Assembly: GCA_036785375.1 (NCBI GenBank)
Contig: JAWMAR010000384.1
Span: forward strand, 868,001-932,000
Direction: 5' to 3'
Source: Leucoraja ocellata
Taxonomy: Eukaryota
DNA length: 64,000 nucleotides
Below the pieces are notes generated by a model, which saw only the letters and a list, made by a program, of their open reading frames with translations, had not been told where the DNA came from and ran no database searches. Positions 17,316 to 55,857 of this stretch are shown here, one piece after another (positions within the stretch are counted from its first letter, which is position 1; each line of letters opens with the position of its first letter). Position numbers and translations under genes: made by a program.

Positions 17316-18000
17316 CTGTTTAATAAGAAGTCACATTTAATTGGAGAAATGCTGTCGTTGAGATATCATTATTTACCGAAAATACATCTCATTAAAGCAC
17401 TCATTTCTTCATTTATAGAAATGTCGTTTTATTCTCGACCTATTTCAAACCATTATAATGTGTTTATTGTAATTGGGTGAACAATAAATAAAGTGCGTGA
17501 AAGCAACTAAAATAGATCCTGTCTACCCTCTGTATAAACACCGGGAAAACATCTGTGATAGATCATGGCTGCAGTATTTTATAAAACTGAATACATTATT
17601 ATAACTTTTATAATGTTCATTTTACTACACATTTCCGGATTTACATTTATTTAAATATATCAGCAGATATAAACGATTCGCGGTCGCGACATTTATAATA
17701 ACAGATTTAAACTTATTTAATTGTCGGCACCATTGAGATGGAGAGTGACGCTATTTAAGTTCGGCAAAAATATATGGAAACTAGTCTTCGAAGGCCACGG
17801 TCACCGATTCGCTTTCCCAGTCATTTCACTGAGTTATGTCCAAGTGACTCGGAACATCTGTACAGCAAGATCGCACCATCTGCACTGAAATACAACTGGC
17901 TCAATCACGCATCATGTGAACTCAGGACATTAAATCAAGCAATATCTGCATTAAAACAAAAAGAAAACAGCGCGCTGTTCGAAGAATATATTTTACTTAC

Positions 18001-18372
18001 CACCAATACCCAGCCTCGTTCCTTTACCGAAATGGAAACCACTATCCCATTTGGCACAGTAATAGTCAGCAGCATCCACCGATTGAACGCTAGATATTGC
18101 GAATGTTACAGAGCTGCCTGACACCGAGATGGAATAACGGTCTGGAATGTCCGTGCCTTTAGAAATGCTGCCGCTGCTAGAATAGTAGAATAGATACTTG
18201 GGAGTTTTGCCAGGAATCTGTTGGTACCACGAGACATAGTAAGCGCCTGAACTGGTACCCGATATGGTGCAGGGTATTTGAATGTTCTGTCCCGTAGAGG
18301 TGGACATCGAAAGCGGCTGAGTTACTGTAACAGCCGCGCTTATGTGAGTTACTGTAACAGCCGCGGTTATGT
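18001..18372 (-). CDS. IGLV: Ig light chain cluster 2, germline-joined VJ exon with in-frame 27-bp duplication
   Basis: Open frame, splice sites intact; 372 nt = 345+27; CDR3 AKWDSGFH. Confidence 0.9.
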
Positions 18373-18493
18373 CTGAGAAAGGAGAAATATCAGAAAAAAA
18401 AGAAAATTGTTAAGTTTGTTGAAGTGTGGGAGGTAATCCCAAATTAACGGTGAACAGAAATAAGTATAATGTCCAGGAAAGTAAAATACTCAC

Positions 18494-18542
18494 AAACTGC
18501 GCAAAACACCAACGCACCGACCACACGGATCCAATAAGACAT
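18494..18542 (-). CDS. Ig light chain cluster 2, leader exon
   Basis: Same 49-nt leader, ATG and GTGAGT donor intact. Confidence 0.9.
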
Positions 18543-21500
18543 GTTCATTAACCGACTGAGCTCCGATGGGGCGGCAGTTTCCAGGACAAGTGCCGTGTAA
18601 TCTTGCTCTCTGGCTCTCTTTATAAATGGAATGACGATATGTCACCGTGTGTTTAATTATCCAAACCAATCAAACCGGTATGCTCGTCGAAGCCAATCAG
18701 AAATTGCCAGATTCTTCCTCAAAATATTCGCCCCTGTGAAACACGCAGGTCTTATTTTAGAGACTTGTATTTCTAAAAAAGCTTCATACATCCAGCAGAA
18801 TGAAAAGGATTGTCACAGTTGTCCCTTCTTTATAAACAAGCAATCTATAATGTTCTGTATGAACCCTCCGCGTACATATACTAAACAGATTGCGAGTATT
18901 CAATGTTATATTCGGTAACTGTTTGATCCACAATGAAAACGGAATAGAAATATTTTATCTAAACGGACCAACTGAATCCGTATCGCTGATTTCCTTCGCT
19001 CCCTCACCCGCTGAGTTTCTCCAGCATTTTTGTCTACCTCCGTATCGCTGAACATAACATGATCACAGTCACAGCATCAGCACTGTTTTAGTAAATATCA
19101 CATTAAATCTATATTTAGATATCTTTGTCATTTTAGAAATGATAAACCCCACAGGCTGCCCTTCTACTTGTGTATCAGATCATTTAGAAAAGACCTGAGG
19201 GGACAGAACATCACTACAAATGTCAGTAAAGTAGCCGTTTTTGGGGGCTATTTTGACTACCCGACGTGTGTCGTGCTTGTAAAAGTGGTCTGTGATACTA
19301 TCCTGTTGTAATGCGCAGTAATTCACGACTCAAAGTGTAAAGGTTGCCTGTACCAAATCAATGCACATATGAGTGAAGTAAAAGGGGTCATATTGGCTCT
19401 CACCGCCTACTTCCAGAGTTCTTTCGGCTTTGAAGGAAGACAGGAATTCTATATACAGCACATCCATAGTCAATTAAAGTTGAATGGAACACGGGCACTC
19501 CAGCACGGGCACGGGCACGGGCAAAACTGACAAGGGAGAAACTTTGCAACGTGAACACGCGAAAGATTGCACTGGCTCATGGCTGTTCATTATTACCACC
19601 GCAAATGCCCATCCGCAGATGCTACATGATGCCCCATAGAGTCAATGAGAGTCAGTCATAGAGTGTGGAAACAGGCCCTTCGGCCCAACTTTCACACATC
19701 GACCAACGACTCATCTACACTCGTCCTACCTGCCCGTATTGGGTCCATATCCCTCCAAATCTGTCATATCCATTTACCTGTCTAACTGTTTTTTAAACGT
19801 TGGGATAGTCCCTGGCACAACTATCTCCTCTGGCTGCTTGTTCCATACTCCCACCACCCTCTGTGGGAAAAAGTTACCCCTCATATTCCTTTCTATTTAA
19901 AAACAAATCTTTTTATTGTTTTTTTCCCAAAAAGAGCAAAAATAAAACATAAAAAAGAGAACAAAAAGAACAATGATAAACATAACAATGGTATTGATAC
20001 ATAGGGACCAGGATTACATTAATAACAGATATAACCTGATATGGGACCAATGTCAAAATACACAATGAATCTAGACCTCCAGGTCTCTATGTTAATATAG
20101 TTAAATCTTTAAAAGGAAACGTGTAAATGTAAAAAAAAAGCACAAAAAGAAATAGACAAAAAAAGACTAAACTAATGAAAGAAAAAAAAGAGAAAATTTG
20201 ATAATAATAATAATAATAATAATAAAATACGCATAAAATAAAATAGTTTAAAAAAACAAAGCAAAGCAAACCCAAAACTGAACTGAGAATTTCAACAATG
20301 TAAGTCTGTTTGTCGTCATGTCTGTTCCACCCAATAGAGATAAAATATTTTTTATAACGGTTAAAGAGGGAGCAATTTATGTTGTATGAAAATGTTCAAT
20401 ACATTTTACCCAAGTCTTATCAAATTTAACCAAGGGTTCAACAGTGTCACTGCTGATTTTTTCAAAATTTAAACATTATATCGTTTCCGAATACCACTGG
20501 AGTGTGGTCGGAGGGTTGGGAGTCTTTCCATTTGAATAAAATAGATCTTCTGGTGATTAATGTGGTAAAAGCAATCAACCGATGGGCGGAGCGGGGCAAA
20601 TGATTAGAATCTAACATTGGCAGCCCAAAAATTGCAGTAATTCCAGTTTGTAAACCTATGCCTAAGACTACAGAAATAGTAACAAAAAATTATTTCCAAT
20701 ATTTTTCCAAAGAAGGGCAGGACCAAAACATATGGGTCAGTGAGGCCACTTCAGATTTACATCTGTCACAGGTAGGATTCATATGACCATAAAAACGAGT
20801 TAACTTATCTTTTGACATATGAGCTATGTGAACCACCTTGACTTGTATCAAAGCGTGTCTTGCACACATTGAATAGGAACCCCTCAGATTCCTATTAAAT
20901 CTTTGCCCGTCACCATGAACCCGGTCCTCCTCTGGGCAAGGGACTATACATCCACCCGATCTATTCCTCTCACGACCCTATACACCTCTATGAGGTTTCC
21001 CTTCAACTTCTGCGCTCCAAAGAATAGAGACCCAGCCTACTCAACCCCTCCCTATACCTCAGTCATGGCAACATCCTCGTAAATCTTCTCTGTACCATTT
21101 CCAGCTTGTCGAAATCTTTCCTATACGGGTGCCCAGACTGAATTCAATACTCTACATGTGACGTCACCAACGTCTTATACATCTGCAACAAGACCTCCCA
21201 ACCTCGATACTCATTACTCTGGCTGATGAAGGCCAATGTGCCAAAAGCCTTTTTGACCACCCGATCTACCGTCGACTGCGTAGGTCCTGCCTATGTTAGA
21301 TTCCCAAAATGCAACAGTTCACATTTCTCTGCATTAAATTCCATCAACCATTCCTCAGCCTACCTGGCCAATTGATCCAGAACCTGCTGCACTTTTTTTC
21401 ACAACCATCTCAGCTATCTGCAAAACCTCCCACGTTTGTATCATCTGAAAACTTGCTAATCTTACCAAGTATGATCCCATTCAAAGCATTGATATAGATG

Positions 21501-24500
21501 ACAATCATTAACGGGCCCAGAACCGAACCCTGAGGCACACCCCGTGTTACTCCAGCACTTTGTGTTTTATCATGATTCCAGCATCCGCAGTTCCTTGTGT
21601 CTCTGTGTTCCCACTTTGGATGGGCAATAAATACTGCGTTTCCAAAGACTCAATCATCATACAAATGAATAACTTTGATGAATTAGATGTGTCTAAGTTA
21701 GATAGAAACAAAGAAAATAGGTGCAGGAGGAGGCCATTTGGCCCTTTAAGCCTGCATCGCTATTCATTGTGATCATGGCTGATCATCCACAATCAGTAAC
21801 CCGCGCCTGCGTGTTCCCCATAACCCTTGATTCCGCTAGCCCCGAGAGCTCTATCTAACTTTTAAATTCGTCCAGTGAATTGGCCTTTACGGCCTTCTGT
21901 GGCAGAGTATTCCACAAATACACAACTGTCTGGGTGAAAAAACTTTCTCCTCTCAATAAATGGCCTCCACTTTATTCTTAGATTGTGGCCTCTGGTTCTG
22001 GGCTCCCCCATCATTAGGAACATTTTTCCTGCGACTAGCTTGTCAGTTCTTTTATAATTGTATACGTTTCTATAAGATGCCCCCTCATCCTTCTAAATAC
22101 CAGTGAATACAAGCCCTATTTTTCCAATCTTTCCTCATATGAGATTTCCGCCATCCCAGGGATTAACCTCTTAAACCTACGCTGCACTGCCTCAATAGCA
22201 AGGATGTCCTTCCTCAAATTAGGAGACCGAAACTGCACACAATACTCGAGATGTGGTCTCACCAGGGCCTTGTACAACTGCACAAGGATATCTTTACTCC
22301 TCTACTCAAAACCTCTCGTTATGAAGGCCAGCGCCTCATTAGCTTTCTTCACTGCCTGCTGTATCTGCATGTTTTCTTTAATTGACTGGTGTATATGGAC
22401 ATTCAGGTCTCGCTGCACTTCCATTTTTCCTAATCTGACACCATTGAGATTCGATTGAAATTTGCCTCCTTGTTCTTGCTACCAAAATGGATAAACTCAC
22501 AATTGTCTACATTATACTGCATCTGCCTTGCATCTGCCCACTCACTCAACCTGTCCAAGTCACCCTGCAACCTCCTAGCCTCCTCTTCGCCGTTCACAAT
22601 GCCACCCAACTTTGTGTCATCTGCAAATTTGCTAGTGTTACTTTTAATCTCATCATCTAAATCATTAATATATATATTGTAAATAGTTGCGGCCCCAACA
22701 CTGAGCCTTGCGGCACTCCACTCGCCTCTGCCGGCCATTCTGGCAGGGACCCGTTTATTCCTACTCTTTGTTTCCTGTTTCCAAACCAATCCTCTACCCA
22801 TGTCAATGCCATGTCAAAGATTGAGCAGAGTGCATTGACGAAGGATTGTTTAAAGTTGAACAGTCAAGAAAGTGGTCAAGGTGTACGAACAAAACAGCGT
22901 TGACCCCGCTGAACTTCCAGATGTCTATTGGGATATCTCAATTTCATTCTGAGAGACATCCGAGACTATCTCGGCCCTTGCTTTAATAACTGGCTTACTG
23001 TTACTTGAGTACAAAGAAGAACAACTAGTTTTAAAACTGAGTTTACTTTTGTTTCGAGATCAGATGTATTCATTGTATAAATGAATGTTTCGATCCACCT
23101 CATGGAACTCATCTTCATGAGAAGTGGGTGACAGTGTGAGGTGTGAGGAAGGTGGTATGGGGTTGTAGCGTGACTTGGATATAGGTTGGGTGAGCGGACT
23201 ATGTCCCTCATTCAAATCGCCATTATACCTTCCCTGTTCAAAGGGACCAATTCCGTTACTCTCGAGCTGCCATTATCATGCCCAATTTCTTCTCAATTTC
23301 TTCTGCGGCTTGTAATTTTTCTTACGGAGCCAACAGCAGACATTTGAGTCTTCCCGGCCATGCCTTTTTCTCCCGATTCCCTAGTGTCCTGGTTGTTCAT
23401 TGTGAGCTCCACCTTTCCCTGATCGTCGATGTCGGGTCTCATTTGTTCTGAATCTTTTCATAGAAACATAGAAACATAGAAACTATGTGCAGAAGGAGGC
23501 CATTCGGCCCTTCGAGCCAGCACCGCCATTCATTGCGATCTTAGCTGATCGTCCCCAATCAATAACACGTGCCTGCCTTCTCCCCATATCCCTTGATTCC
23601 ACTAGCCTCTAGAGCTCTATCTTACTCTCTCTTAAATCCATCCAGTGATTTGGCCTCCACTGCCCTCTGTGACAGGGAATTTCACAAATTCACAACTCTC
23701 TGGGTGAAAATCTTTTTTTCTCACCTCAGTCTTAAATGGCCTCCAAGACTGTGGCCCCTGGTTCTGGACTGGCCCAGCATTGGGAACATTTTTCCTGCAT
23801 CTAGCTTGTGCAGTCCTTTTTATAATTGTATATGTTTCTATAAGATACCACCTCATCCTTCTAAACTCCAGCGAATACAAGCCTAGTATTTTCAATCTTT
23901 CCTCACAGGACAGTCCCGCCATCCCAGGGATCAATCTCGTGAATCTACGCTGCATTGCTTCAATCACAAGGATGTCCTTCCTCAGATTAGGAGACCAAAA
24001 CTGTACGCAATACTCCAGATGTGGTCTTACCAGAGCCCTATACAACTGCAGAAGAACCTCTTTACTCCTATACTGAAATTCTCTTGTTATGAAGGCCAAC
24101 ATTAGCTTTCTTCACTACCTGCTGTACCTGCACGCTAGCTTTCGGTGACTGGTGTACAAAGACGCCCAGGTCTCGCTGCACCTCCCCCTTAACTAACCTG
24201 ACCCCATAGAGATAATAATCTTCTCCCTTGTTGTTGCCGCCGAAGTGGATAACCTCACATTTATCTATATTATACTGCATCTGCCACGCATCTGCCCACT
24301 CACTCAACCTGTCCAGGTCACCCTGCAACCACCTAACATCCTCTTCACAGTTCACACTGCCAACCAGCTTTGTGTCATTATCAAAGGCTTTCTGAATGTC
24401 TAGATATACTAAATCCACTGGCTCCCCTTCATCCATTTTACTTGTCATATCCTCAAAAAATTCCAGAAGATTAGTCAAGGATGATTTCCCTTTCATAAAT

Positions 24501-28835: not shown

Positions 28836-29158
28836 TCAGATACAGCTGGATCTCACGATAGTTGTCTTAAGTGGGTTTGCCTGAGCCTGGTGTGTAACCA
28901 CACAGGAGTAAAGGTCGTGTAAGTTCCAGTCTGAGGCTGTCAGAGTCAGGTAACTGCTGAGACTGAACGTGTTGTCCTTATCCTGCTGGATCGGGCTGGT
29001 CTCAACGTCGCTATTTTTTGCACTGCCGTCGACGCTCCATTCAACGGCCACCGAGCCCGGATTAAAGCCGTTCACCAAACAAACCAGGGTGGCGGTGCCC
29101 TTTGAGGTAACTTCATCGGCTGAAGGCGGCAGGACCGTCACGATCGGTGCCCGAGGAT
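28836..29158 (-). CDS. IGLC: Ig light chain cluster 3, constant exon
   Basis: 323 nt, intact C1-set domain ending RSSCI*. Confidence 0.95.
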
Positions 29159-30152
29159 CTGTTTAATAAGAAGTCACATTTAATTGGAGAAATGCTGTCG
29201 TTGAGATATCATTATTTACCGAAAATACATCTCATTAAAGCACTCATTTATTCATTTATAGAAATGTCGTTTTATTCCCGACCTTTTTCAAACCATTATA
29301 ATGTGTTTATTTTAATTGGGTGAACAATAAATAAAGTGCGTGAAAGCAACTAAAATAGATCCTGTCTACCCTCTGTATAAACACCGGGAAACCATCTGTG
29401 ATAGATCATGGCTGCAGTATTTTATAAAACTGAATACATTATTATAACTTTTATAATGTTCATTTTACTACACATTTCCGGATTTACATTTATTTAAATG
29501 TATCAGCAGATATAAACGATTCGCGGTCGCGACATTTATAATAACAGATTTAAACTTATTTAATTGTCGGCACCATTGAGATGGAGGGTGACGCTATTTA
29601 AGTACGGCAAAAATATATGGAAACTAGTCTTCGAAGGCCACGGTCACCGATTCGCAGATATAGTTCACAAGCAAGAATTACATTGTAGTTCGAATGTTCA
29701 TTTAAATTTGAAATACACGGCTGCGTCCACGAAAAGCTGCTCTACGTATTAAACACAATTTCTGAAGGAAATGTGCGAAACTTTCTCCTTTCGCATTTGG
29801 CATTTTGATATCCTTGTTCAACCCGTCAACCGGATTTTTGACAGTGTTGAATATTGACGTTGGTGAACCCCGTTACCCAAGCAATTTCCTTTCATATTTG
29901 GACAATCACTGTAAATATGTCCGCAATGTATTGAACGAAGCTCAAGACAAAGCATTAGCTCGCTTTCCCAGTCATTTCACTGAGTTATGTCCAAGTGAAC
30001 TCGGAACATCTGTACAGCAAGATCGCACCATCTGCACTGAAATACAACTGGCCCAATCACGTATCATGTGAACTCAGGACATTAAATCAAGCAATATCTG
30101 CATTAAAATAAAAAGAAAACAGCGCGCTGTTCGAAGAATATATTTTACTTAC

Positions 30153-30497
30153 CGCCAATACCCAGCCTCGTTCCTTTACCGAAATATATACCACTATCCC
30201 ATTTGGCACAGTAATAGTCAGCAGCATCCACCGATTGAACGCTAGATATTGCGAATGTTACAGAGCTGCCTGACACCGAGATGGAAAAACGGTCTGGAAT
30301 GTCCGTGCCTTTATAAATGGTGCCGCCGGTATAGTGGGCGAATAGATACTTGGGAGTTTTGCCAGGAATCTGTTGGTACCACGAGACATAGTTAGCGCCT
30401 GAACTGGTACCCGATATGGTGCAGGGTATTTGTATGTTCTGTCCCGTAGAGGTGGACATCGAAGGCGGCTGAGTTACTGTAACAGCCGCGCTTATGT
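30153..30497 (-). CDS. IGLV: Ig light chain cluster 3, germline-joined VJ exon
   Basis: 345-nt open exon; CDR3 AKWDSGIY then FGKGT. Confidence 0.95.
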
Positions 30498-30618
30498 CTG
30501 AGAAAGGAGAAATATCAGAAAAAAAGAGAAAATATTAGGTTTGTTGAAGTGTGGGAGATAATCCCAAATTAATGGTGAACAGAAATAAGTATAATGTCCA
30601 GGGAAGTAAAATACTCAC

Positions 30619-30667
30619 AAACTGCGCAAAACACCAACGCACCGACCACACGGATCCAATAAGACAT
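30619..30667 (-). CDS. Ig light chain cluster 3, leader exon
   Basis: 49-nt leader, ATG and donor intact. Confidence 0.92.
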
Positions 30668-33600
30668 GTTCATTAACCGACTGAGCTCCGATGGGGCGGC
30701 AGTTTCCAGGACAAGTGGCGTGTAATCTTGCTCTCTGGTTCTCTTTATAAATGGAATGACGATATGTCACCGTGTGTTTAATTATCCAAACCAATCAAAC
30801 CGGTATGTTCGTCGAAGCCAATCAGAAATTGCCAGATTCTTCCTCAAAATATTCGCCCCTGTGAAACACGCAGGTCTTATTTTAGAGACTTGTGTTTCTA
30901 AAAAGCTTCATACATCCAGCAGAATGAAAAGGATTGTCACAGTTGTCCCTTCTTTATAAACAAACAATCTATAATGTTCTGTATGAACCCTCCGCATATA
31001 TACACTAAACAGATTGCGAGATTTAAATATTATATTCGGTAATTGTTTAATCAACAATGAAAACGGAATAGAAATATTTTATCTAAACTGACCAACTGAA
31101 TCCGTATCGCAGATTTCCTTCGCTCCCTCACTCGCTGAGTTTCTCCAACATTTTTGTCTACCTCCTTATCGCCGAATATAATATGATCACAGTCGCAGCA
31201 TCAGCACTGTTTTAGTAAATATCACATTAAATCTATATTTAGATATCTTTGTCATTTTAGAAATGATAAACCCCACAGGCTGCCCTTCTACTTGTGTATC
31301 AGATCATTTAGAAAAGACCTGAGGGGACAGAACATCACTAAAAATGTCAGTAAAGTTGCCGGTTTTGGAGGCTATTTTGACTACCCGACGTGTGTCGTGC
31401 GTGTAAAAGTGGTCTGTGATACTATCCTGTTGTAATGCGCAGTAATTCACGACTCAAAGTGTAAAGGTTACCTGTACCAAATTAATGCACATATGAGTGA
31501 AGTAAAAGGGGTCATATTGGCTCTCACCGCCTACTTCCAGAGTTCTTTCGGCTTTGAAGGAAGACAGGAATTCTATATACAGCACATCCATATTCAATTA
31601 AAGTTGAATGGAACACGGGCACTCCAGCACGGGCACGGGCAAAACTGACAAGGGAGAAACTTTGCAACGTGAACACGCGAAAGATTGCACTGGCTCATGG
31701 CTGTTCATTATTACCTCCGCAAATGCCGATCCGCAGATGCTACATGATGCCCCATAGAGTCAAAGAGAGTCAGTCATAGAGTGTGGAAACAGGCCCTACG
31801 GCCCAACTTTCACACATCGACCACCGACCCATCTACACTCGTCCCACCTGCCCGTATTGGGTCCATGTCCCTCCAAATCTGTCACATCCATTTACCTGTC
31901 TAACTGGTTTTTAAACGTTGGGATAGTCCCTGGCACAACTATCTCCTCTGGCTGCTTGTTCCATACTCCCGCCACCCTCTGTGGGAAAAAGTTACCCCTC
32001 ATATTCCTTTCTATTTAAAAACAAATCTTTTTATTGTTTTTTTCCCAAAAAAAGCAAAAATAAAACATAAAAAACAGAACAAAAAGAATAATGATAAACA
32101 TAACAATGGTATTGATACATAGGGATCAGGATTACATTAATAACAGGTATAACCTGATATGAGACCAATGTCAAAATACACAATGAATCTAGACCTCCAG
32201 GTCTCTATGTTAATATAGTTAAATCTTTAAAAGGAAACTTATAAATGTAAAAAAAAGCACAGAAAGAAATAGACAAAAAAAAGACTAAACTAAAGAAAGA
32301 AAAAAAAGGGAAAAATTGACAATAATAATAATAATAAAATACGCATAAAAATAAAATAGTTTAAAAAAACAAAGCAAAGCAAACCCGAATATGAACTGAG
32401 AATTTCAACAATGTAAATGTGTTTGTCGTCATGTCTGTTCCACCCTATAGAGATAAAATATTTTTTATAACGGTTCAAGAGGGAGCAATTTATGTTGTAT
32501 GAAAATGTTCAATACATTTTACCCAAGTCTTATCAAATTTAACCAAGGGTTCAACAGTGTCACTGCTGATTTTTTCAAAATGTAAACATGATATCGTTTC
32601 CGAATACCACTGGAGTGTGGTCGGAGGGTTAGGAGTCTTTCCATTTGAATAAAATAGATCTTCTGGCGATTAATGTGGTAAAAGCAATCAACCGATGGGC
32701 GGAGCGGGACAAATGACTAGAATCTAACATTGGCAGCCCCAAAATTGCAGTAATTCCAGTTTGTAAACCTATGCCTAAGACTACAGAAATAGTAACAAAA
32801 AATAATTTTCAATATTTTTCCAAAGAAGGGCAGGATCAAAACATATGGGTCAGTGAGGCCACTTCAGATTTACATCTGTCACAGGTAGGATTCATATGAC
32901 CATAAAAACGAGTTAACTTATCTTTTGACATATGAGCTCTGTGAACCACCTTGACTTGTATCAAAGCGTGTCTTGCACACATTGAATAGGAACCCCTCAG
33001 ATTCCTATTAAATCTTTGCCCGTCACCATGCACCCGGTCCTCCTCTGGGCAAGGGACTATACATCCACCCGATCTATTCCTCTCACGACCCTATACACCT
33101 CTATGAGGTTTCCCTTCAACTTCTGCTCTCCAAAGAATAGAGTCCAGGCCTACTCAACCCCTCCCTATACCTCAGTCATGGCAACATCCTCGTAAATCTT
33201 CTCTGTACCATTTCCAGCTTGTCGAAATCTTTCCTATACGGGTGCCCAGACTGAATTCAATACTCTACATGTGACGTCACCAACGTCTTATACATCTGCA
33301 ACAAGACCTCCCAACCTCGATACTCATTACTCTGGCTGATGAAGGCCAATGTGCCAAAAGCCTTTTTGACCACCCGATCTACCGTCGACTGCGTAGGTCC
33401 TGCCTATGTTAGATTCCCAAAATGCAACAGTTCACATTTCTCTGCATTAAATTCCATCAACCATTCCTCAGCCTACCTGGCCAATTGATCCAGAACCTGC
33501 TGCACTTTTTTTCACAACCATCTCAGCTATCTGCAAAACCTCCCACGTTTGTATCATCTGAAAACTTGCTAATCTTACCAAGTATGATCCCATTCAAAGC

Positions 33601-35572
33601 ATTGATATAGATGACAATCATTAACGGGCCCAGAACCGAACCCTGAGGCACACCCCGTGTTACTCCAGCACTTTGTGTTTTATCATGATTCCAGCATCCG
33701 CAGTTCCTTGTGTCTCTGTGTTCCCACTTTGGATGGGCAATAAATACTGCGTTTCCAAAGACTCAATCATCATACAAATGAATAACTTTGATGAATTAGA
33801 TGTGTCTAAGTTAGATAGAAACAAAGAAAATAGGTGCAGGAGGAGGCCATTTGGCCCTTTAAGCCTGCATCGCTATTCATTGTGATCATGGCTGATCATC
33901 CACAATCAGTAACCCGCGCCTGCGTGTTCCCCATAACCCTTGATTCCGCTAGCCCCGAGAGCTCTATCTAACTTTTAAATTCGTCCAGTGAATTGGCCTT
34001 TACGGCCTTCTGTGGCAGAGTATTCCACAAATACACAACTGTCTGGGTGAAAAAACTTTCTCCTCTCAATAAATGGCCTCCACTTTATTCTTAGATTGTG
34101 GCCTCTGGTTCTGGGCTCCCCCATCATTAGGAACATTTTTCCTGCGACTAGCTTGTCAGTTCTTTTATAATTGTATACGTTTCTATAAGATGCCCCCTCA
34201 TCCTTCTAAATACCAGTGAATACAAGCCCTATTTTTCCAATCTTTCCTCATATGAGATTTCCGCCATCCCAGGGATTAACCTCTTAAACCTACGCTGCAC
34301 TGCCTCAATAGCAAGGATGTCCTTCCTCAAATTAGGAGACCGAAACTGCACACAATACTCGAGATGTGGTCTCACCAGGGCCTTGTACAACTGCACAAGG
34401 ATATCTTTACTCCTCTACTCAAAACCTCTCGTTATGAAGGCCAGCGCCTCATTAGCTTTCTTCACTGCCTGCTGTATCTGCATGTTTTCTTTAATTGACT
34501 GGTGTATATGGACATTCAGGTCTCGCTGCACTTCCATTTTTCCTAATCTGACACCATTGAGATTCGATTGAAATTTGCCTCCTTGTTCTTGCTACCAAAA
34601 TGGATAAACTCACAATTGTCTACATTATACTGCATCTGCCTTGCATCTGCCCACTCACTCAACCTGTCCAAGTCACCCTGCAACCTCCTAGCCTCCTCTT
34701 CGCCGTTCACAATGCCACCCAACTTTGTGTCATCTGCAAATTTGCTAGTGTTACTTTTAATCTCATCATCTAAATCATTAATATATATATTGTAAATAGT
34801 TGCGGCCCCAACACTGAGCCTTGCGGCACTCCACTCGCCTCTGCCGGCCATTCTGGCAGGGACCCGTTTATTCCTACTCTTTGTTTCCTGTTTCCAAACC
34901 AATCCTCTACCCATGTCAATGCCATGTCAAAGATTGAGCAGAGTGCATTGACGAAGGATTGTTTAAAGTTGAACAGTCAAGAAAGTGGTCAAGGTGTACG
35001 AACAAAACAGCGTTGACCCCGCTGAACTTCCAGATGTCTATTGGGATATCTCAATTTCATTCTGAGAGACATCCGAGACTATCTCGGCCCTTGCTTTAAT
35101 AACTGGCTTACTGTTACTTGAGTACAAAGAAGAACAACTAGTTTTAAAACTGAGTTTACTTTTGTTTCGAGATCAGATGTATTCATTGTATAAATGAATG
35201 TTTCGATCCACCTCATGGAACTCATCTTCATGAGAAGTGGGTGACAGTGTGAGGTGTGAGGAAGGTGGTATGGGGTTGTAGCGTGACTTGGATATAGGTT
35301 GGGTGAGCGGACTATGTCCCTCATTCAAATCGCCATTATACCTTCCCTGTTCAAAGGGACCAATTCCGTTACTCTCGAGCTGCCATTATCATGCCCAATT
35401 TCTTCTCAATTTCTTCTGCGGCTTGTAATTTTTCTTACGGAGCCAACAGCAGACATTTGAGTCTTCCCGGCCATGCCTTTTTCTCCCGATTCCCTAGTGT
35501 CCTGGTTGTTCATTGTGAGCTCCACCTTTCCCTGATCGTCGATGTCGGGTCTCATTTGTTCTGAATCTTTTC

Positions 35573-37846
35573 ATAGAAACATAGAAACATAGAAACTAGG
35601 TGCAGAAGGAGGCCATTCGGCCCTTCGAGCCAGCACCGCCATTCATTGCGATCATGACTGATCGTCCCCAATCAATAACCAGTGCCTGCCTTCTCCCCAT
35701 ATCCCTTGATTCCACTAGCCTCTAGAGCTCTATCTAACTCTCTCTTAAAGCCATCCAGTGATTTGGCCTCCACTGCCCTCTGTGGCAGGGAATTCCACAA
35801 ATTCACAACTCTCTGGGTGAAAACGTTTTTTTCTCACCTCAGTCTTAAATGGCCTCCAAGACTGCGGCCCCTGGTTCTGGACTCGCCCAGCATTGGGAAC
35901 ATTTTTCCTGCATCTAGCTTGTGCAGTCCTTTTTATAATTTTATATGTTTCCATAAGATATCCCCTCATCCTTCTAAACTCCAGCGAATACCTGTCTAGT
36001 ATTTTCAATCTTTCCTCATAGGACAGTCCCGCCATCCCAGGGATCAATCTCGTGAACCTCCGCTGCATTGCTTCAATCACAAGGATGTCCTTCCTCAGGT
36101 TAGGAGACCACAACAGTACGCAATGCTCCAGATGTGGTCTTACGAGAGCCCTATACCACTGCAGAAGAACCTCTTTACTCCTATACTGAAATCCTCTTGT
36201 TATGAAGGCCAACATTAGCTTTCTTCACTGCCTGCTGTACCTGCACGCCAACTTTCAGTGACTGGTGTACAAAGACGCCCAGGTCTCGCTGCACCTCCCC
36301 CTTACCTAACCTAACCCCATTGAGATAATAATCTTCTCCCTTGTTGTTGCCGCCAAAGTGGATAACCTCACATTTATCTATATTATACTGCATCTGCCAC
36401 GCATCTGCCCACTCACTCAACCTGCCCAGGTCACCCTGCAACCACCTAACATCCTCTTCACAGTTCACACTGCCACCCAGCTTTGTGTCATCCACAAACT
36501 TGCTAGTGTTGCTCCTAATTCTCGCTTCCAAATCATTAATATATATGGTAAACAGTTGCGGCCTAAACACCGAGCCTTGCGGCACTCCACTCGCCATTGC
36601 CTGCCATTCTGAAAAGGACCCGTTCACTCCTACTCTTTGTTTCCTGTCTACCAACCAATTTTCTATCCATGTCAACACCCTGTCACCAATACCATGTGCT
36701 CTAATTTTAGTCACCAGTCTCCCGTGCGGGACCTTATCAAAGGCTTTCTGAAAGTCTAGATACACTAAATCCACTGGCTCCCCTACATCCATTTTACTTG
36801 TCATATCCTCAAAAAATTCCAGAAGATTAGTCAAGCATGATTTCCCTTTCATACATCCATGTTTAGTTGGACTAATCCTTTTACTGCTATCCAAATGCTC
36901 CATTATTACATCTTTAATAATTGACTCCAGCATCTTTCCCACCACCGAAGTCAGGCTAACTGGTCTGTAATTCCCCGTGTTCACTCTCACTCCTTTCTTG
37001 AAAAGTGGGATAACATTAGCTATCCTCCAATCCACAGGAACTGATCCTCAATCTATTGAACATTGGAAAATGATCATCAGTGCGTCCACTATTTCTTGAG
37101 CCACCTCCCTGAGGAACCTGGGATGCAGACCTGCTTGGATTCCTTTCCAGTCTACCTTGGCCAGCTCCTCTCTCATGCCTTCATGGTCCCCTTTGTTCAA
37201 CTGCATCACTGACACTTCCAATTTAACCTTCTCCTTCTCAAATTGCAGATTGCAGATTAAAACCAATCATATTATGATTACGACCTCCAAGTGGTTCCAT
37301 TACCTCGAGTTCTCTTATCAAATCTGGTTCATTAGACAACACTAAATCCAGAATTGCCGTTTCTATGGTCGTCTCCATTACAAGAGCTCTTAGAATCCAT
37401 CTCGGAGGCACTCGGAGAGAGTTTGCAGAAACTCTCTTTCTTGGGATCCTGAACCAACCTGATTTCCCCAGTCTACCTGCATATTGAAATCCCCCATCAC
37501 CACAGTGGCATTACCTTTGTTACATGCCAGTTTTAACTCCTGCTGCAACTTACACCTTACATCCGGGCTACTATATGGGGGTCTGTAGATAACATCAATT
37601 AGTGTCTTCTTGCCTTTACAATTCCTCAACTCAATCCACAGTGCCTATGTCTTCCTTCGCAAGGGACTGAATCCCATCCCTCACCAGCAGAGTTACCCCA
37701 TCCCTCCTCTGCCCACGTGCCTGTCCTTTCTTTTCCATAGGATGTATAACCCTGAATATTATTCCCAGACCCGATCCTCCTGCAGCCACATCTCAGTAAT
37801 CCCCACAATGTCATATCTACCAACCTCTAACTGAGCCTCAAGCTCA
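35573..37846 (-). mobile_element. CR1-clade LINE, decayed ORF2 (endonuclease fragments + reverse transcriptase + 3' tail)
   Basis: NYRPVSLTS, YLDFQKAFDKVPH, GVPQGSV, FVDDTKL motifs; VIYRPP and MGDFN endonuclease motifs; (TTTCTATG)n 8-bp tail; frameshifts. Confidence 0.9.
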
Positions 37847-38728
37847 TCTATATCTATATTCTATATCTATATCTATCTATCTATATTAAAACTCTGTGGC
37901 AGGCTGGCTGTGTGTGTTTCTGCCTGACTTGTGGTTGCCAGCCTTTGATTCGTTGCTACGCCAACACCAGACGCAGAAACGCCCAGATGTTTTCCATTTC
38001 GGTAGAGATTTCACTAATCATTCCAAGTATCCACTGCATAAATTTCGTCGTGTTTATGTACACATTATTAATAAAATCCTTCTACCCCCGCCCCCCCCCC
38101 CCCAATTAAAAAAAAAACAGCTCTCACCCATCGAATGTTGTTGAACGTTCACAATGCCCAATTCTCACAGATGTCCAATCGGAATGGATCATTTACATAT
38201 GCCTTTGCAGCAGCCCCAGCCCCAGCCCCTCCCCCCACCCCCCACCCCCCCCCCCAGCCTGTGTCGAAGCGCGTCATCACGTGTGTGGGAATAGACAAAG
38301 AGGATTGGGGGTGATAGGGAATGGGGAAGGGATGGACTGTCCCTACCCCTCCCCCTTCCACTCTCCCTCCCCACTATTTCCCCTCTCACCCCCACCCCTC
38401 TCCCCCTCCCTCCATACTCTTCCCCCTCCCTCCCCTACCCCATCTCCCTCCTCCACAACTCTCTCCCCCTCCCCTCTCTCCTCCCCTCACCACCCTTCTC
38501 TCCTCCTCCCTCTTCATCCCCCTCTCCTCACCCCACCCCCTCTCCCTGCCCTGCACCCACCCCCATCCCTCTCTCCCCCCCACCCCCCTCAATCTCTCCC
38601 CCCGCCCCCTACCCCTGTCCCTCTTCCACCACGCCCCTACCTCCTCTCCCCCCCTGCAGCGCCCCCCCCCCCCCCCCCCGCAAACGCGCGTTGGGGAAAC
38701 AGACCCAACGGGTCTGCACTTGGTCTAG
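37847..38728 (+). mobile_element. Non-autonomous Helitron, full length
   Basis: Follows A37846, starts TC(TATA), ends hairpin CAGACCC-AAC-GGGTCTG (38700-38716) + 8 nt + CTAG, followed by T; no TSD. Confidence 0.8.
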
Positions 38729-41700
38729 TATAATATTAAAACTCTGTGGCTGGCTGCTGGCTGGCTGTATTTCTGCCTGACTTGTGGTTGCCAGCCTTTG
38801 ATTCGTTGCTACGCCAACACCAGACCCACAAACGCCTAGAATGTTTCCATTTCGGTACAGTTTTCACTTTTCATTCCAAGTATCCACTCCTGATTAAATT
38901 TCGTCGTGTTTATGTACATAGATTTAATAAAACCCTTCTCCCCTCCACTAACAGCGACCATAACGGCTGCTGTCGCCCGCATCTCGGCTCAAAGGCGCCA
39001 TTTAAAAACATCCGCACTGCTGAGTCCTGAACGGCTTGAGTTGGAGGACAACGTCTCCCGTGGGGGTCCATTGATTTATTTTTGGGGATTAATGTGTTGT
39101 TGGCCAGACACTGCATCGATTTCCCATCCCTATCTATTGCTCTAATACCCTTAGTGAAGATAAGTCGCTTTACGTAGGAGTAAAGTTTTCTGTCCAGGGC
39201 CGAAGTATTATATAATATAGTTGATTAAAGTAGGCGAGGGGACGTTTGAAGGGGGCACACTTTGCATGTCTTTTTTAAACAGAAAGTGTGCAACGCTTTG
39301 CTAGAAGAAGCAGTGTAAGTAGATACCCAGCAAGGTTCAAGAGACATTTAGGCAAACACGTGAACAGGTAGGGAATGGAGGGATATAGACATTATATATG
39401 GCAGGCAGATGACATTGGCATTAGGTTCGCACAGACATTGTGGGCCATGGTGGATAGATCTGAAGTTATGACACTGATATCGTGTTTAACAGCATTCACG
39501 CGGATGATGAGCGAGAGAGGCCGACAGCATTTATACATGGCATGAGTGTAAGTGCATGATTTTCTCGCCGGTCCTGGCGCTCACACATAGACATCTTCGA
39601 AAGGCAACGGTAAAATATTGTAATGACATTACGAGACAGGAGAAAATGCGGCCTTTTGGGTCAGTCTCAGCTTCTGTCAGATTAGCCCCCCCCCCCCCCC
39701 CCCAGTTCCCAGTGGAGGCCAAATCACTGATGGATTTAAGAGGGAGTTAGAGCACTAGAGGCTAGTGGAATCAAGGGATTTGGGCAGAAGGCAGGCACGG
39801 GTTATTGTTTGGGGACGATCGGGCATGATCTCATTGAATGGCGGTGCTGGCTCGAAGGGCCGAAAGGCCTCCTTCTGCACCTATTTTCTATGTTTCTATG
39901 TTTCTATGTCTCTATGAAAATATTCAGAACAAATGAGACCCGATATCGATGACCAGGGAAAGGTGGAGCTCACAATGAATAACCAGGACACTACGGGAAC
40001 GGAAGGAAAAGGCAAGGCCGGGAAGACTCAAACCTTTGTTTTTGGCTCCTTCATAAAATTACAAGCCGCAGAAGAAATTGGGAAGAAAATGGTATGATAA
40101 TGGCAGCTCGAGAGTTATCGGAATTGGTTCCTTTGAACAGGGAAGGTATAATGGTGATTTGAATGAGGGGCATAGTCAAGGCGTTTGAATTGACCATTTT
40201 TTTCCGAGTGAAAGTAGGCTCAGTATTTACAGATTTAGAGGAATTTCCAAAATAACTAACGATCAGGTGAGCAATTGCAGATATGTGACCATTTATTCGA
40301 ATCAGCAAAAAATGCATACAATCCGGATCATTTAGAAAAGATAAGACACATAATGAGATCATGTCTGAAACTTACAAAATTCTTAGGGGGTTAGACAGGC
40401 TAGATGCAGGAAGATTGTTCCCGACGTTGGGGAGGTCCAGGATAGGGGGTCACAGTTTAAGGAAAGAGGGAACTCTTTTGGGACCGAGATGAGGAAAACA
40501 TTCTCTGCCACAGAAGGTAGTTGAGGCCAGTTCATTGGCTATATTTAAGAGGGGGTTAGATGTGGCCCTTGTGGCTAAAGGGATCAGGGGGTATGGAGAG
40601 AAGGCAGGTGCAGGATACTGGGTTGGATGATCAGCCATGATCATATTGAATGGTGGTGCAGCCTCGAAGGGCCGAATGGCCTACTTCTGCACCTATTTTC
40701 TATGTTTCTATGTTTCTATGTTTCTATAAAGCTGGAGTAAATTAGCGGGTCAGCCAGCATCTCTGGAGAAAATGAATAGGTGACATTTCGGATCGAGACC
40801 TTTCTTCAAACAGTCTGAAGAAGGGTCTCGCCCCAAAACGTCACCGATTCCCTTTCTCCAGAGATGCTTTCTGACCAACTGATTTACTCCAGATGTTTGT
40901 GTCTATCTTTGCTTTAAACCAGCATCTGCAGCTCCTTCCCATTCATTAAGACTTAAGTCCAGGTTGCTCATGTTACGTGAAAATAATTGGGAATAAAGCT
41001 TGGAATAAGGGAAAAGCGATTTGTGACAGAGGTCAGGGGTTTGTCCGTGACTGATTGTCCTCTAACTATAGCATATAGTTCCCTCATTGTTCACTATTAA
41101 CCCCGCCCCCGTCCTATTCTCACCCACCCCCCCCCCCCCTCTCTCTCCCCCCCCCTCTCTCTCTCTCTCTCCCACCCCTCGCTCTCTTTCTGCATGTGTC
41201 TATATGAAGCTGCCGTGCACTGGTCGCATCTTTCTGTAGATATTATCTTGCTTTATTGAGAGTGTTGTTACCCAGTTCCAGTGTATTACCACCGTGAGAC
41301 ACGTACACGCCACATACAAACTCAGTGGCAGTTCTGCTAACGCCAATAATCATCCCGTTTCTTTAAAGCTGACAATCAGAAGAAATAAAGAAGAAATAAG
41401 GTGTAATGTTTGTAAATATTTAAATACAAACCCCGTCACCGATTAGTGTGAAAGTCACGGCCTTCTGTGATGAAGGATGGAGGTGCCATGCTTAGTGCGA
41501 GGGGTGTAAAGGGGAGGTGCGAACAACCCATCAGTTTACATAAACCTGCTGATGTGTTGGGAATTAATGGCGTTTCCAAATTTCCAGATTTCCACGTATG
41601 CACACGTATTTTATTTAATTATGTAGCGGTACACCTTGTGAACAAAGACATATTTAACAAACCCTGAACGCACGAGGCTGGTAGGGACGTTTTTGATTTT

Positions 41701-42350
41701 TTTTTTTAAACAGCCTGAAACGTCTAATCTATTTCTCACTTCCCACATACCGCCGGACTTACTCAGTATGAACAGTATCTTCTGTTTATTTCTGTGATAA
41801 TTTCGGGTTTAAGACCACCTTTGCCCTGCTTGGTTTATACGGTTCTTTCGCTGAATCATGTTGCACAAGAACTGACAAAGCGCTGTAGAACACGTGGTAT
41901 AAATGGACGAGTGGCCCACTACTGCTGTACGATTGTAATTAGTGATTGAAATAGAGAAAGAAAATCAGTGTTGCTAGCTCAAATCTACGAGACAACGCAA
42001 CCCGTGTTAAGCCATCATGGTTCGGGTCATAAATAAAACTGAGGGAATCAACAATGCATTTGAAATGCGTTTTTTAAACTTTATTCAACGGCTACAAAGA
42101 TACCATGGGTACAATAACAACATCCATGCTGTTGGATAACGCAATTAAATCTACTTGATGCTTCATTCAAGAACGACATTCTTTCGAAAGAACTACATTT
42201 AAAGTGAACAAGTCATAAAAATCGAAGTTTCAACTACAAATGGCATTTCTGAACGAAATCACTGAAGTCCAATACATTACTAACTTTGTCACATGGACGA
42301 ACCCAATGATGATAAACTAACTTAGTCAGGTCAGCCTCACGTTTCCAACA

Positions 42351-42673
42351 TCAGATACAGCTGGATCTCTCGATATTTGTCTTAAGTGGGTTTGCCTGAG
42401 CCTGGTGTGTAACCACACAGGAGTAAAGGTCGTGTAAGTTCCAGTCTGAGGCTGTCAGAGTCAGGTAACTGCTGAGACTGAACGTGTTGTCCTTATCCTG
42501 CTGGATCGGGCTGGTCTCAACGTCGCTATTTCTTGCACTGCCGTCGACTGTCCACTCAACGGCGACCGAGCCCGGATTAAAGCCGTTCACCAAACAAACC
42601 AGCGTGGCTGTGCCCTTTGAAATAACTTCATCGGCTGAAGGCGGCAGGACCGTCACGATCGGTGCCCGAGGAT
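42351..42673 (-). CDS. IGLC: Ig light chain cluster 4, constant exon
   Basis: 323 nt, intact, ends RSSCI*. Confidence 0.95.
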
Positions 42674-43659
42674 CTGTTTAATAAGAAGTCACATTTAATT
42701 GGAGAAATGCTGTCGTTGAGATATCATTATTTACCGAAAATACATCTCATTAAAGCACTCATTTATTCATTTATAGAAATGTCGTTTTATTCTTGACCTA
42801 TTTCAAACCATTATAATGTGTTTATTTTAATTGGGTGAACAATAAATAAAGTGCGTGAAAGCAACTAAAATAGATCCTGTCTACCCTCTGTATAAACACC
42901 GGGAAACCATCTGTGATAGATCATGGCTGCAGTATTTTATAAAACTGAATACATTATTATAACTTTTATAATGTTCATTTTACTACACATTTCCGGATTT
43001 ACATTTATTTAAATATATCAGCAGATATAAACGATTCGCGGTCGCGACATTTATAATAACAGATTTAAACTTATTTAATTGTCGGCACCATTGAGATGGA
43101 GGGTGACGCTATTTATGTTCGGCAAAAATATATGGAAACTAGTCTTCGAAGGCCACGGTCGCCGATTCGCAGATATAGTTCGCAAGCAAGAATTACATTG
43201 TAGTTCGAATGTTCATTTAAATTTGAAATACACGGCTGCGTCCACGAAAAGCTGCTCTACGTATTAAACACAATTTCTGAAGGAAATGTGCGAAACTTTC
43301 TCCTTTCGCATTTGGCATTTTGATATCCTTGTTCAACCCGTCAACCGGATTTTTGACAGTGTTGAATATTGACGTTGGTGAACCCCGTTACCCAAGCAAT
43401 TTCCTTTCATATGTGGACAATCACTGCAAATATTTCCACAATTTATTGAACGAAGCTCAAGACAAAGCATTAGCTCGCTTTCCCAGTCATTTCACTGAGT
43501 TATGGCCAAGTGAACTCGGAACATCTGTACAGCAAGATCGCACCATCTGCACTGAAATACAACTGCCCCAATCACGTATCATGTGAACTCAGGACATTAA
43601 ATCAAGCAATATCTGCATTAAAAGAAAAAGAAAACTGCCGATGAATATATTTTACTTAC

Positions 43660-44004
43660 CGCCAATACCCAGCCTCGTTCCTTTACCAAAATGTAAACCA
43701 CTATCCCATTTGGCACAGTAATAGTCAACAGCATCCACCGATTGAACACTAGATATTGCGAATGTTACAGAGCTGCCTGACACCGAGATGGAAAAACGGT
43801 CTGGAATGTCCGTGCCTTTATAAATGGTGCCGCCGGTAGTATGGACGAATAAAAACTTGGGAGTTTTGCCAGGAATTTGTTGGTACCACGAGACATAGTT
43901 AGCGCCCGAACTTGTGCCCGATATGGTGCAGGGTATTTGAATGTTCTGTCCCGTAGAGGTGGACATCGAAGGCGGCTGAGTTACTGTAACAGCCGCGCTT
44001 ATGT
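43660..44004 (-). CDS. IGLV: Ig light chain cluster 4, germline-joined VJ exon
   Basis: 345-nt open exon; CDR3 AKWDSGLH. Confidence 0.95.
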
Positions 44005-44124
44005 CTGAGAAAGGAGAAATATCAGAAAAAAAGAAAATTGTTAAGTTTGTTGGAGTGTGGGAGATAACCCCAAATTAATGGTGAACAGAAATAAGTATAA
44101 TGTCCAGGGAAGTAAAATACTCAC

Positions 44125-44173
44125 AAACTGCGCAAAACACCAACGCACCGACCACACGGATCCAATAAGACAT
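44125..44173 (-). CDS. Ig light chain cluster 4, leader exon
   Basis: 49-nt leader, ATG and donor intact. Confidence 0.92.
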
Positions 44174-45329
44174 GTTCATTAACCGACTGAGCTCCGATGG
44201 GGCGGCAGTTTCCAGGACAAGTGGCGTGTAATCTTGCTCTCTGGCTCTCTTTATAAATGGAATGACGATATGTCACCGTGTGTTTAATTATCCAAACCAA
44301 TCAAACCGGTATGCTCGTCGAAGCCAATCAGAAATTGCCAGATTCTTCCTCAAAATATTCGCCCCTGTGAAACACGCAGGTCTTATTTTAGAGACTTGTG
44401 TTTCTAAAAAGCTTCATACATCCAGCAGAATGAAAAGGGTTGTCACAGTTGTCCCTTCTTTATAAATAAATAATCTATAATGTTCTGTATGAACCCCCCG
44501 CATATATACACTAAACAGATTGCGAGTTTTAAATATTATGTTCGGTAACTGTTTAATCAACAATGAAAACGGAATGGAAATATTTTATCTAAAAGGACCA
44601 ACTGAATCCGTATCGCTGATTTCCTTCGCTCCCTCACCCGCTGAGTTTCTCCAGCATTTTTGTCTACCTCCGTATCGCTGAACATAACATGATAACAGTC
44701 ACAGCATCAGCATTATTTTATTTAAAAAGCACATTAAATCTATATTTAGATATCTTTGTCATTTTAGAAATAATTAACCCCACAGACTGCCCTTCTACTT
44801 GTGTATCAGATCATTTAGAAAGGACCTGGGGAGACAGAACATCACTACAGATGTCAGTAAAGTTGCAGTTTTGGAGGCAACTTAGACTACCCGATGTGTG
44901 TCGCGCTTGGAAAAGCGGTCTGTGATACTCTCGTATTGTAATGCGCAGTAATTCACGAAACTTGCCTCGACTCAAAGTTGAACGGTTGCCTGTAGCAAAT
45001 TAATGCATGTATGAGTGAAGTAAAAGGGGTCATATTGACTCTCACCGACCACTTCCAGAGTTATTTCGACTTTGTAGTACGACTGGACGACAGGAATTCT
45101 ACACACAGCACATCCATATTCAATTAAAGTTGAATAGAACACGAGCACTCCAGCTATCTGGCAAAACTGACAAGGGACAAACGCGAAGAGCGGTTTTCGG
45201 GAAATAGCGGGTGAGAAAAAGAATTACCACGAATAATTGTCCTTAAAGTGTCATTAAACTAGATTAGTTTAGCAGTGAACATGACTGGTCAGCGATCCAT
45301 TAACTTAACCGTTCATCCTTTCACCACTA

Positions 45330-54025: not shown

Positions 54026-54348
54026 TCAGATACAGCTGGATCTCTCGATAGTTGTCTTAAGTGGGTTTGCCTGAGCCGGGTGTTTAACCACACAGGAGTA
54101 AAGCTGGTGTAAGTTCCAGTCTGAGGCTGTCAGAGTCAGGTAACTGCTGAGACTGAACGTGTTGTCCTTATCCTGCTGGATCGGGCTGGTCTCAACGTCG
54201 CTATTTTTTGCACTGCCGTCAACGTTCCATTCAACGGCCACCGAGCCCGGATTAAAGCCGTTCACCAAACACACCAGGGTGGCGGTGCCCTTTGAAGTAA
54301 CTTCATCGGCTGAAGGCGGCAGGACCGTCACGATCGGTGCCCGAGGAT
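54026..54348 (-). CDS. IGLC: Ig light chain cluster 5, constant exon
   Basis: 323 nt, intact, ends RSSCI*. Confidence 0.95.
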
Positions 54349-55342
54349 CTGTTTAATAAGAAGTCACATTTAATTGGAGAAATGCTGTCATTGAGGTATC
54401 ATTATTTACCGAAAATACATCACATTAAAGCACTCATTTATTCATTTATAGAAATGTCGTTTTATTCTTGACATTTTTCAAACCATTATAGTGTGTTTAT
54501 TGTAATTGGGTGAACAATAAATAAAGTGCGTGAAAGCAACTAAAATAGATCCTGTCTACCCTCTGTATAAACACCGGGAAACCATCTGTGATAGATCATG
54601 GCTGCAGTATTTTATAAAACTGAATACATTGTTATAACTTTTATAATGTTCATTTTACTACACATTTCCGGATTTACATTTATTTAAATATATCAGCAGA
54701 TATAAACGATTCGCGGTCGCGACATTTATAATAACAGATTTAAACTTATTTAATTGTCGGCACCATTGAGATGGAGGGTGACGCTATTTAAGTTCGGCAA
54801 AAATATATGGAAACTAGTCTTCGAAGGCCACGGTCACCGATTCGCAGATATAGTTCACAAGCAAGAATTACATTGTAGTTCGAATGTTCATTTAAATTTG
54901 AAATACACGGCTGCGTCCACGAAAAGCTGCTCTACGTATTAAACACAATTTCTGAAGGAAATGTGCGAAACTTTCTCCTTTCGCATTTGGCATTTTGATA
55001 TCCTTGTTAAACCCGTCAACCGGATTTTTGACAGTGTTGAATATTGACGTTGGTGAACCCCGTTACCCAAGCAATTTCCTTTCATATCTGGACAATCACT
55101 GCAAATATTTCCGCAATTTATTGAACGAAGCTCAAGACAAAGCATTAGCTCGCTTTCCCAGTCATTTCACTGAGTTATGGCCAAGTGAACTCGGAACATC
55201 TGTACAGCAAGATCGCACCATCTACACTGAAATACAACTGGCCCAATCACGTATCATGTGAACTCAGGACATTAAATCAAGCAATATCTGCATTAAAATA
55301 AAAATAAAACAGCGCGCTGTCCGATGAACATATTTTACTTAC

Positions 55343-55687
55343 CGCCAATACCCAGCCTCGTTCCTTTACCGAAATATAAAGCACTATCCCATTTGGCACA
55401 GTAATAGTCAGCAGCATCCACCGATTGAACGCTAGATATTGCGAATGTTACAGAGTTGCCTGACACCGAGATGGAAAAACGGTCTGGAATGTCCGTGCCT
55501 TTATCAATGGTGCCGCCGGTATAATGGACGAATAGATACTTGGGAGTTTTGCCAGGAATCTGTTGGTACCACGAGACATAGTTAGCGCCTGAACTGGTAC
55601 CCGATATGGTGCAGGGTATTTGTATGTTCTGTCCCGTAGAGGTGGACATCGAAGGCGGCTGAGTTACTGTAACAGCCGCGCTTATGT
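55343..55687 (-). CDS. IGLV: Ig light chain cluster 5, germline-joined VJ exon
   Basis: 345-nt open exon; CDR3 AKWDSALY. Confidence 0.95.
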
Positions 55688-55808
55688 CTGAGAAAGGAGA
55701 AATATCAGAAAAAATTAGAAAATATTAAGTTTGTTTAAGTGTGGGAGATAATCCCAAATTAATGGTGAACAGAAATAAGTATAATGTCCAGGGAAGTAAA
55801 ATACTCAC

Positions 55809-55857
55809 AAACTGCGCAAAACACCAACGCACCGACCACACGGATCCAATAAGACAT
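55809..55857 (-). CDS. Ig light chain cluster 5, leader exon
   Basis: 49-nt leader, ATG and donor intact. Confidence 0.92.

Follow-up and report, generated by a model that had tools for sequence, protein, structure and literature searches.

Cartilaginous-fish lambda light-chain genes are described as all germline-joined (PMC4279169, PMC5192425), and the elasmobranch lambda (type II, NS3) clusters each contain one leader, one pre-joined VJ and one C exon, encoding chains reported to have a long CDR1 and a short CDR2 (PMC5192425). Many pre-joined clusters also make up the type I (sigma-2) family of the skate Raja (Leucoraja) erinacea, in which, according to Anderson et al. 1995, differences are focused on the CDRs and replacements exceed neutral changes (PMC2192082); for further related literature see PMC2193156, PMC5985310 and PMC2435157. 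Light chains joined in the germline have no V-J joining diversity, hence how their inherited repertoire is kept up is a fair question. Non-allelic conversion and concerted evolution acting together with diversifying selection are known from the MHC and from mammalian V genes, where the families consist of mosaic paralogues with homogenised frameworks and retained binding-site variants. Non-allelic gene conversion has also been described at immunoglobulin loci (PMC3308330). We found no conversion analysis of a skate lambda array in the literature searched, which took in few subscription papers. The advance reported here is incremental, since replacement focused on the CDRs was published for joined skate genes in 1995 and conversion is established in Ig families.

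Self-comparison of the window (the whole 64-kb stretch of DNA analysed) revealed a repeat of ~12 kb in five tandem copies, c1 to c5, each made up of leader, fused VJ and C exons, all on the minus strand (5/5 clusters; Table 1). V and J are fused in frame in the genomic DNA of all five clusters; the VJ frame is open in 5/5 copies and the V and C frames together in 4/5. A search of the minus strand for exact recombination signal (RSS) heptamers and nonamers found none inside any gene and four heptamer-like matches in the spacers. The five clusters are tandem germline-joined VJ-C light-chain genes, lambda-like in type and presumably from a Leucoraja-like skate. One copy, c2, has an in-frame 27-nt duplication at the start of V and lacks 308 nt of the J-C intron through one deletion and, through another of 104 nt, the end of the C exon including the terminal Cys; it is likely defective, with a truncated C exon.

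Table 1 Coordinates of the array, its CDR2 loops and the regions discussed in the text.
Feature	Positions	Strand	Remarks
Cluster c1	3167..4986	-	leader 4938-4986, joined VJ 4472-4816, C 3167-3489; open frames
Cluster c2	17038..18542	-	leader 18494-18542, joined VJ ends 18001, C exon starts 17315
Cluster c3	28836..30667	-	leader 30619-30667, VJ 30153-30497, C 28836-29158; open frames
Cluster c4	42351..44173	-	leader 44125-44173, VJ 43660-44004, C 42351-42673; open frames
Cluster c5	54026..55857	-	leader 55809-55857, VJ 55343-55687, C 54026-54348; open frames
c1 CDR2 VHTYSGSIY	4632..4658	-	probably the best candidate for a 5'/3' mosaic
c2 CDR2 YYSSSGSIS	18161..18187	-	begins Tyr-Tyr, as is usual in relatives
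c3 CDR2 AHYTGGTIY	30313..30339	-	
c4 CDR2 VHTTGGTIY	43820..43846	-	loop plus one flanking codon each side
c5 CDR2 VHYTGGTID	55503..55529	-	
c3-c4 spacer	35500..42350	.	mostly 98-100% identical to c4-c5 spacer; one 500-bp tile 94%
Perfect match, 2,451 bp	21035..23485 vs 33148..35598	.	upstream of c2 and c3
Perfect match, 265 bp	c4 44110..44374 vs c1 4923-5187	.	promoter and leader
Promoter-upstream zone (c4 coordinates)	44314..44715	-	9 private C>T at WRC, 7 at AAC; unexplained residual

Four of 22 sequencing runs and 40 of 171 difference rows were covered in a comparison with run data. A contig from run X17 is spliced leader-VJ-C with joins at 44125/44004 and 43660/42673, the predicted junctions of c4, although it represents a paralogue and not c4 itself (its VJ departs from that of c4 by 17 letters and 3 gap letters). 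The end of this contig places the start site probably near 44227. The promoter, at ~44250-44335, has two ATTGG (CCAAT-like) boxes, a TATA-like box and a palindrome-like TGACA..GTCA element; a search of the minus strand for the exact octamer motif, in both orientations, found none.

The nearest record is the L. erinacea protein XP_055511140.1 (V 96%, C 94% identical), whose 90% cluster comprises four Leucoraja and seven Amblyraja proteins; no V domain of the window is an exact match to any of its four L. erinacea members. In a tree built from frameworks and C, the window copies intermingle with the Leucoraja proteins. Most of 67 C-domain matches are auto-named 'lambda-1-like' and one 'kappa-like', so that the isotype label is that of automatic record names. 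A search of solved structures gave generic antibody matches only. CDR1 has 8 residues, as in relatives. The clusters share their organisation with the elasmobranch lambda genes and differ from them in CDR2, which at 7 residues exceeds that of the human lambda match, and that of most shark relatives, by four; most of the shark and chimaera relatives compared have 2-3 residues, and the 7-residue form is common to a mostly batoid subset plus Hemiscyllium and Hydrolagus records. With the L. erinacea type I family they have in common the pre-joined clusters and the concentration of replacements in the CDRs (PMC2192082). They differ in being probably of another isotype and in forming a tight tandem array with flanks, in which exchange is directly testable.

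The loop was compared over nine codons, which we take to be the 7-residue CDR2 with one residue on each side (IMGT-style numbering), and the five codon strings that the earlier note had quoted for it proved exact in c1-c5. The alignment of all five copies has 5173 ungapped columns, 411 of them variable; 12/27 columns vary in CDR2 against 13/263 in the frameworks, 45/780 in the introns and 211/2761 in the 3' flank, a background of ~5-8% (Fisher p 3e-7 or lower for CDR2 against each). CDR2 is the most variable of 4063 27-column windows, bearing in mind that this window was chosen post hoc. The second most variable 27-bp window, at 39666-39679, has nine differences packed together, common to c4 and c5, beside a 30-nt indel.

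The changes in the loop fall almost only at amino-acid-changing positions, the main driver, which the earlier note had overlooked. Codon positions 1-2 vary at 11/18 sites and position 3 at 1/9 (p=0.019); pN is 0.28 and pS 0.064 in CDR2, with pN of 0.008-0.021 in the frameworks. In the TAC and AGC codons, the C at the third position is a WRC target at which a mutation would be silent, yet all five copies keep it unchanged. We consider it probable that the loop owes its diversity to diversifying selection on the long CDR2, combined with ordinary non-allelic conversion or unequal crossover between near-identical clusters.

Exchange between the clusters is seen in the conflict among informative sites. 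The 3' flank is tree-like, with 61/69 informative sites fitting one tree, while only 6/34 informative sites of the gene body lie on that tree (p=1.6e-12). Outside the CDRs, 20/28 informative gene-body sites are off the best tree, as are 12/18 when non-coding sites are taken alone; no-recombination simulations (3 x 1000) gave means of 1-3 off-tree sites and a maximum of 9. The signal is alike in promoter, introns, V, C exon and spacers, and identical tracts of 0.15-2.5 kb join varying pairs, with perfect ones of 2451, 986, 396 and 265 bp between different pairs of copies. A GENECONV-like longest-run check was nominally significant for 4/10 pairs (c1/c3, c4/c5, c1/c4, c2/c5), and none of these runs lies in CDR2. 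Short conversion tracts had been proposed by the earlier note to shuffle CDR2 between clusters; germline exchange is supported, and targeting of CDR2 is not. Gene-body tract lengths are undefined because a test for clustering of recombination within the gene body alone was not significant (p 0.12-0.19).

The history of c4 illustrates such replacement. The spacers on both of its sides, mostly 98-100% identical, mark c4 out as a recent duplicate lying between c3 and c5. Its gene body is sister to neither neighbour: from c5 it differs at 62/1914 gene-body sites against 23/2761 flank sites, and from c3 at 58/1914 gene-body sites. As the body is far more divergent than the c4/c5 flank, it was probably replaced from other donors. 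Upstream of c4, at 44716-46900, the DNA is shorter and ~10% divergent from the other four copies, with an unmatched stretch at ~45180-45690; this region likely derives from another subfamily.

The longest perfect match, between c2 and c3, is either a very recent long exchange or conversion, or an artefact of assembly. More generally, much of the mosaicism could come from the mixing of haplotypes or paralogues in a tandem array that is 93-99% identical, and perfect matches of 2,451 and 986 bp amid 3-7% divergence are what such mixing might leave behind. We regard this as very unlikely, given that the CDR2 of c4 is found intact in the L. erinacea protein P0021 and in a contig from run X1, that similar shuffling of residues is seen in independent annotations, those of L. 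erinacea and Amblyraja, and that misassembly cannot produce a replacement bias. The X1 contig carries the c4 loop, and its five differences, among the rows listed, are all outside the loop. P0021 could be an allele, as its species may be that of the window.

Within CDR2 the conflict is small. There are four informative sites, one grouping c1/c4, one c3/c5 and two c1/c2, for which the best tree needs one extra step. The earlier note had read c4 as the 5' half of c1 joined to the 3' half of c3, with c5 switching one codon earlier. In favour of a mosaic, the c1/c4 grouping at 43907, 43854 and 43840 on the 5' side conflicts with the c1/c2 grouping at 43834 and 43827 on the 3' side. However, the match of c4 to the 3' half of c3 is the majority state, and c4 is only one base off the five-copy majority. 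A fresh c1/c3 hybrid is thus unneeded for c4, whose loop is also present in P0021, to which it is identical, and in the X1 contig. No switch is needed for c5 either: its first two codons are the majority ones, the two differences of c3 there are private to c3, and c5 as a recombinant was rejected since the states it shares are majority states.

Val at position 1 and Thr at position 3 are confined to the window and Leucoraja, whereas the Ser-Gly-Ser ending is also found in Amblyraja, which makes c1 probably the better candidate for a mosaic. It is best read as putatively joining a 5' part of Leucoraja type to an older 3' part ending in Ser-Gly-Ser; a single parallel substitution would account for the CDR2 conflict equally well. 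The loop of relatives mostly begins Tyr-Tyr, and the apparent doublet of c2 is likely an old state. As to a bounded tract, there is one incompatibility, no donor in the window, and no demonstrated two-breakpoint tract confined to CDR2. Further upstream in V, c4 has four private synonymous changes within 65 bp (43852-43916, CDR1-FR2), which suggests a donor outside the window.

The loop might never have been converted, its patchwork being parallel single substitutions among Ser, Thr, Tyr and Gly under selection, with exchange only elsewhere. One parallel change would be unremarkable with 12/27 sites variable, the single extra step of CDR2 requires no more, a single base separates most of the residues that toggle, and the within-gene clustering test is non-significant. 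Against this, the c1/c4 grouping extends 5' of the loop to the synonymous site 43907, to 44068 in the intron and to the 265-bp perfect match; homoplasy at non-coding sites is too high for recurrence, so tracts across CDR2 are to be expected; and a loop shorter by one codon occurs on two framework types. We hold parallel substitution alone to be unlikely.

The comparison across genera comprised 16 proteins (5 from the window, 4 from L. erinacea and 7 from Amblyraja) and protein sequences only. Frameworks and C are genus-specific (Fst-like 0.44, p=1e-4), whereas CDR2 residues are common to the genera (Fst-like 0.09, p=0.10). CDR2 is not alone in this, since CDR3 does not separate by genus either (Fst-like -0.12). 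The genus-specific frameworks could stem from separate expansions (support 81/75, unstarred). The four-gamete test fails for 12/36 pairs of loop positions (13 nine-residue loops, with 4 eight-residue loops left out). The one-codon-shorter, 8-residue loop is carried on two framework subfamilies, both present in Leucoraja and Amblyraja (proteins P0018, P0016, P0020 and P0022 versus P0007 and P0024-P0029).

Selection combined with ordinary exchange could account for these patterns as follows. CDR2 would carry most of the inherited diversity, as no V-J joining varies CDR3. Exchange would be homology-driven and meiotic, with conserved FR2 and FR3 serving as homology arms. Conversion would homogenise the frameworks while selection keeps loop variants, such that new loop residues are retained by selection and may then be recombined by exchange between copies. 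The array shares mosaic paralogues, homogenised frameworks and kept binding-site variants with known conversion families and differs in that the unit exchanged is a complete expressed-type VJ-C gene; each exchange therefore makes a new inherited light chain. AID-dependent somatic conversion of the chicken type also yields patchwork V regions, but it operates in somatic cells and copies from pseudogene donors into a single recipient; in the window, 4/5 copies keep open V and C frames and the mosaics are genomic. This array, a clean test bed, points to upkeep of the repertoire by selection on the lengthened CDR2 together with ordinary exchange between tandem clusters.

A further possibility, of the kind put forward in the earlier note, is that AID or an AID-like deaminase acting in the germline on accessible pre-joined genes seeds lesions that lead to tandem substitutions and conversion. 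Our benchmark was shark somatic hypermutation, with values from TCR-alpha: in nurse shark, G:C changes are reported to be 4.3-fold commoner in DGYW/WRCH, and 38-51% of mutated bases to be in tandem (PMC5931798). A share of 'nearly 60%' tandem changes is also given for sharks (PMC8781386). The germline differences of the window resemble that process in their CDR-focused replacement and in two CDR2 doublets; they differ from it in that hypermutation is somatic, 4.3-fold biased and 38-60% tandem. Lee et al. reportedly described shark somatic hypermutation with tandem substitutions in 2002.

Inside the gene, neither mark was recovered. In the V exon and nearby intron, WRC sites vary at 7/70 against 20/228 elsewhere, a relative risk (RR) of 1.14 (CI 0.41-2.8) which differs from the benchmark of 4.3 (p=0.001); among the 14 G/C sites of the CDR2 consensus, 1/2 vary at WRC and 5/12 elsewhere. 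The adjacent 2-base changes noted in CDR2 come to two same-lineage doublets where 0.96 are expected at that density. They make up 4/14 of the CDR2 changes (CDR2 vs flanks p=0.084), and that of c2 is the Tyr state common in relatives. Outside CDR2, the rest of V together with leader and introns has no doublet in 64 changes, where the benchmark has 38-51% of mutated bases in tandem, and C has none in 17; the 18/489 of the flanks (6.1 expected) resemble a background of multinucleotide mutation. The introns within the 150-1500 bp window show no raised divergence over the 3' flank (the intron and flank counts given above). A nominal excess is found at WGCW from the leader to the J-C intron (3/23 vs 7/247 vary; p=0.044, uncorrected, one of 15 contexts), and the Ser/Thr toggle at 43827 would fall on the G of a WGCW if Ser were ancestral. 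The genes thus show no significant AID mark and the idea that AID seeded the CDR2 lesions is unsupported inside the gene, both the WRC and the doublet test being null. Power is low because there are only five copies, and a modest AID contribution, up to RR 2.8, is possible.

Enrichment at WRC in the flanks generally (40/282 vs 63/843, p=0.001) was tried and rejected: it is gone among 3' flank singletons (OR 1.18) and likewise in the 4 kb upstream (OR 0.84). The flank signal was traced to two patches, 44174-44715 and 40351-41350, and without the former it falls to 65/720 vs 153/2133 (p=0.11). In the 40351-41350 patch, in the 3' flank, differences are WRC-biased (12/65 vs 11/201, nominal p=0.004) and not specific to private C>T.

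The other patch contains a cluster of private C>T changes upstream of the promoter (44314-44715, including the homologous zones of c2 and c3), at 9/48 WRC sites against 3/127 others (scan-wide p about 0.002-0.003). Seven of the nine lie on the antisense strand. By context, AAC is changed at 7/20 and AGC at 0/8. Once same-copy changes within 6 bp are merged, p is 0.027 if WRC is taken by itself and 0.09 if four classes are considered, and when 108 motifs are considered 77% of null runs match the cluster. The zone lies 90-490 bp upstream of the promoter, unlike the known hypermutation window, which is 150-1500 bp downstream of the start site. A link between off-target AID activity and divergent transcription upstream of promoters has been described (bioRxiv 2021.09.16.460442). 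In mouse, AID expression is reported in germline tissue, and loss of AID is said to leave meiotic recombination unaltered, including around Ig loci (PMC3618351). The gonad has a lymphoid tissue, the epigonal organ, associated with it (PMC4279169). A soma-to-germline hypothesis, unsupported here, has been used to argue for signatures of hypermutation in germline V genes (PMC12941027).

Taken with the RR of 1.14 and the missing doublets, these results make germline AID seeding of the gene body highly improbable to us, the CDR2 doublets, the WGCW excess and the upstream cluster being the points in its favour. It would be equally a long shot that a WRC-preferring deaminase acts on pre-joined antibody genes in skate germ cells, leaving heritable C>T changes upstream and setting off repair by which whole gene bodies are converted between clusters. 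If that were true, AID would be a germline diversifier of innate-like antibodies, and the antisense bias is such as divergent transcription would give; Pefanis 2014 is cited for AID off-target activity at divergent transcription. The one surprise would be a confirmed germline AID footprint.

Some single-copy and spacer features were also observed. At the otherwise constant start of CDR3, c1 has Gly in place of Trp, and in FR3 of c4 (43728) Ala is replaced by Val directly before the DYYC motif. An element of ~480 bp is present in both orientations in each unit (e.g. 796-1264 vs 23197-23676); a frame at 23635-24111 that overlaps it resembles what we take to be a LINE 3' fragment.
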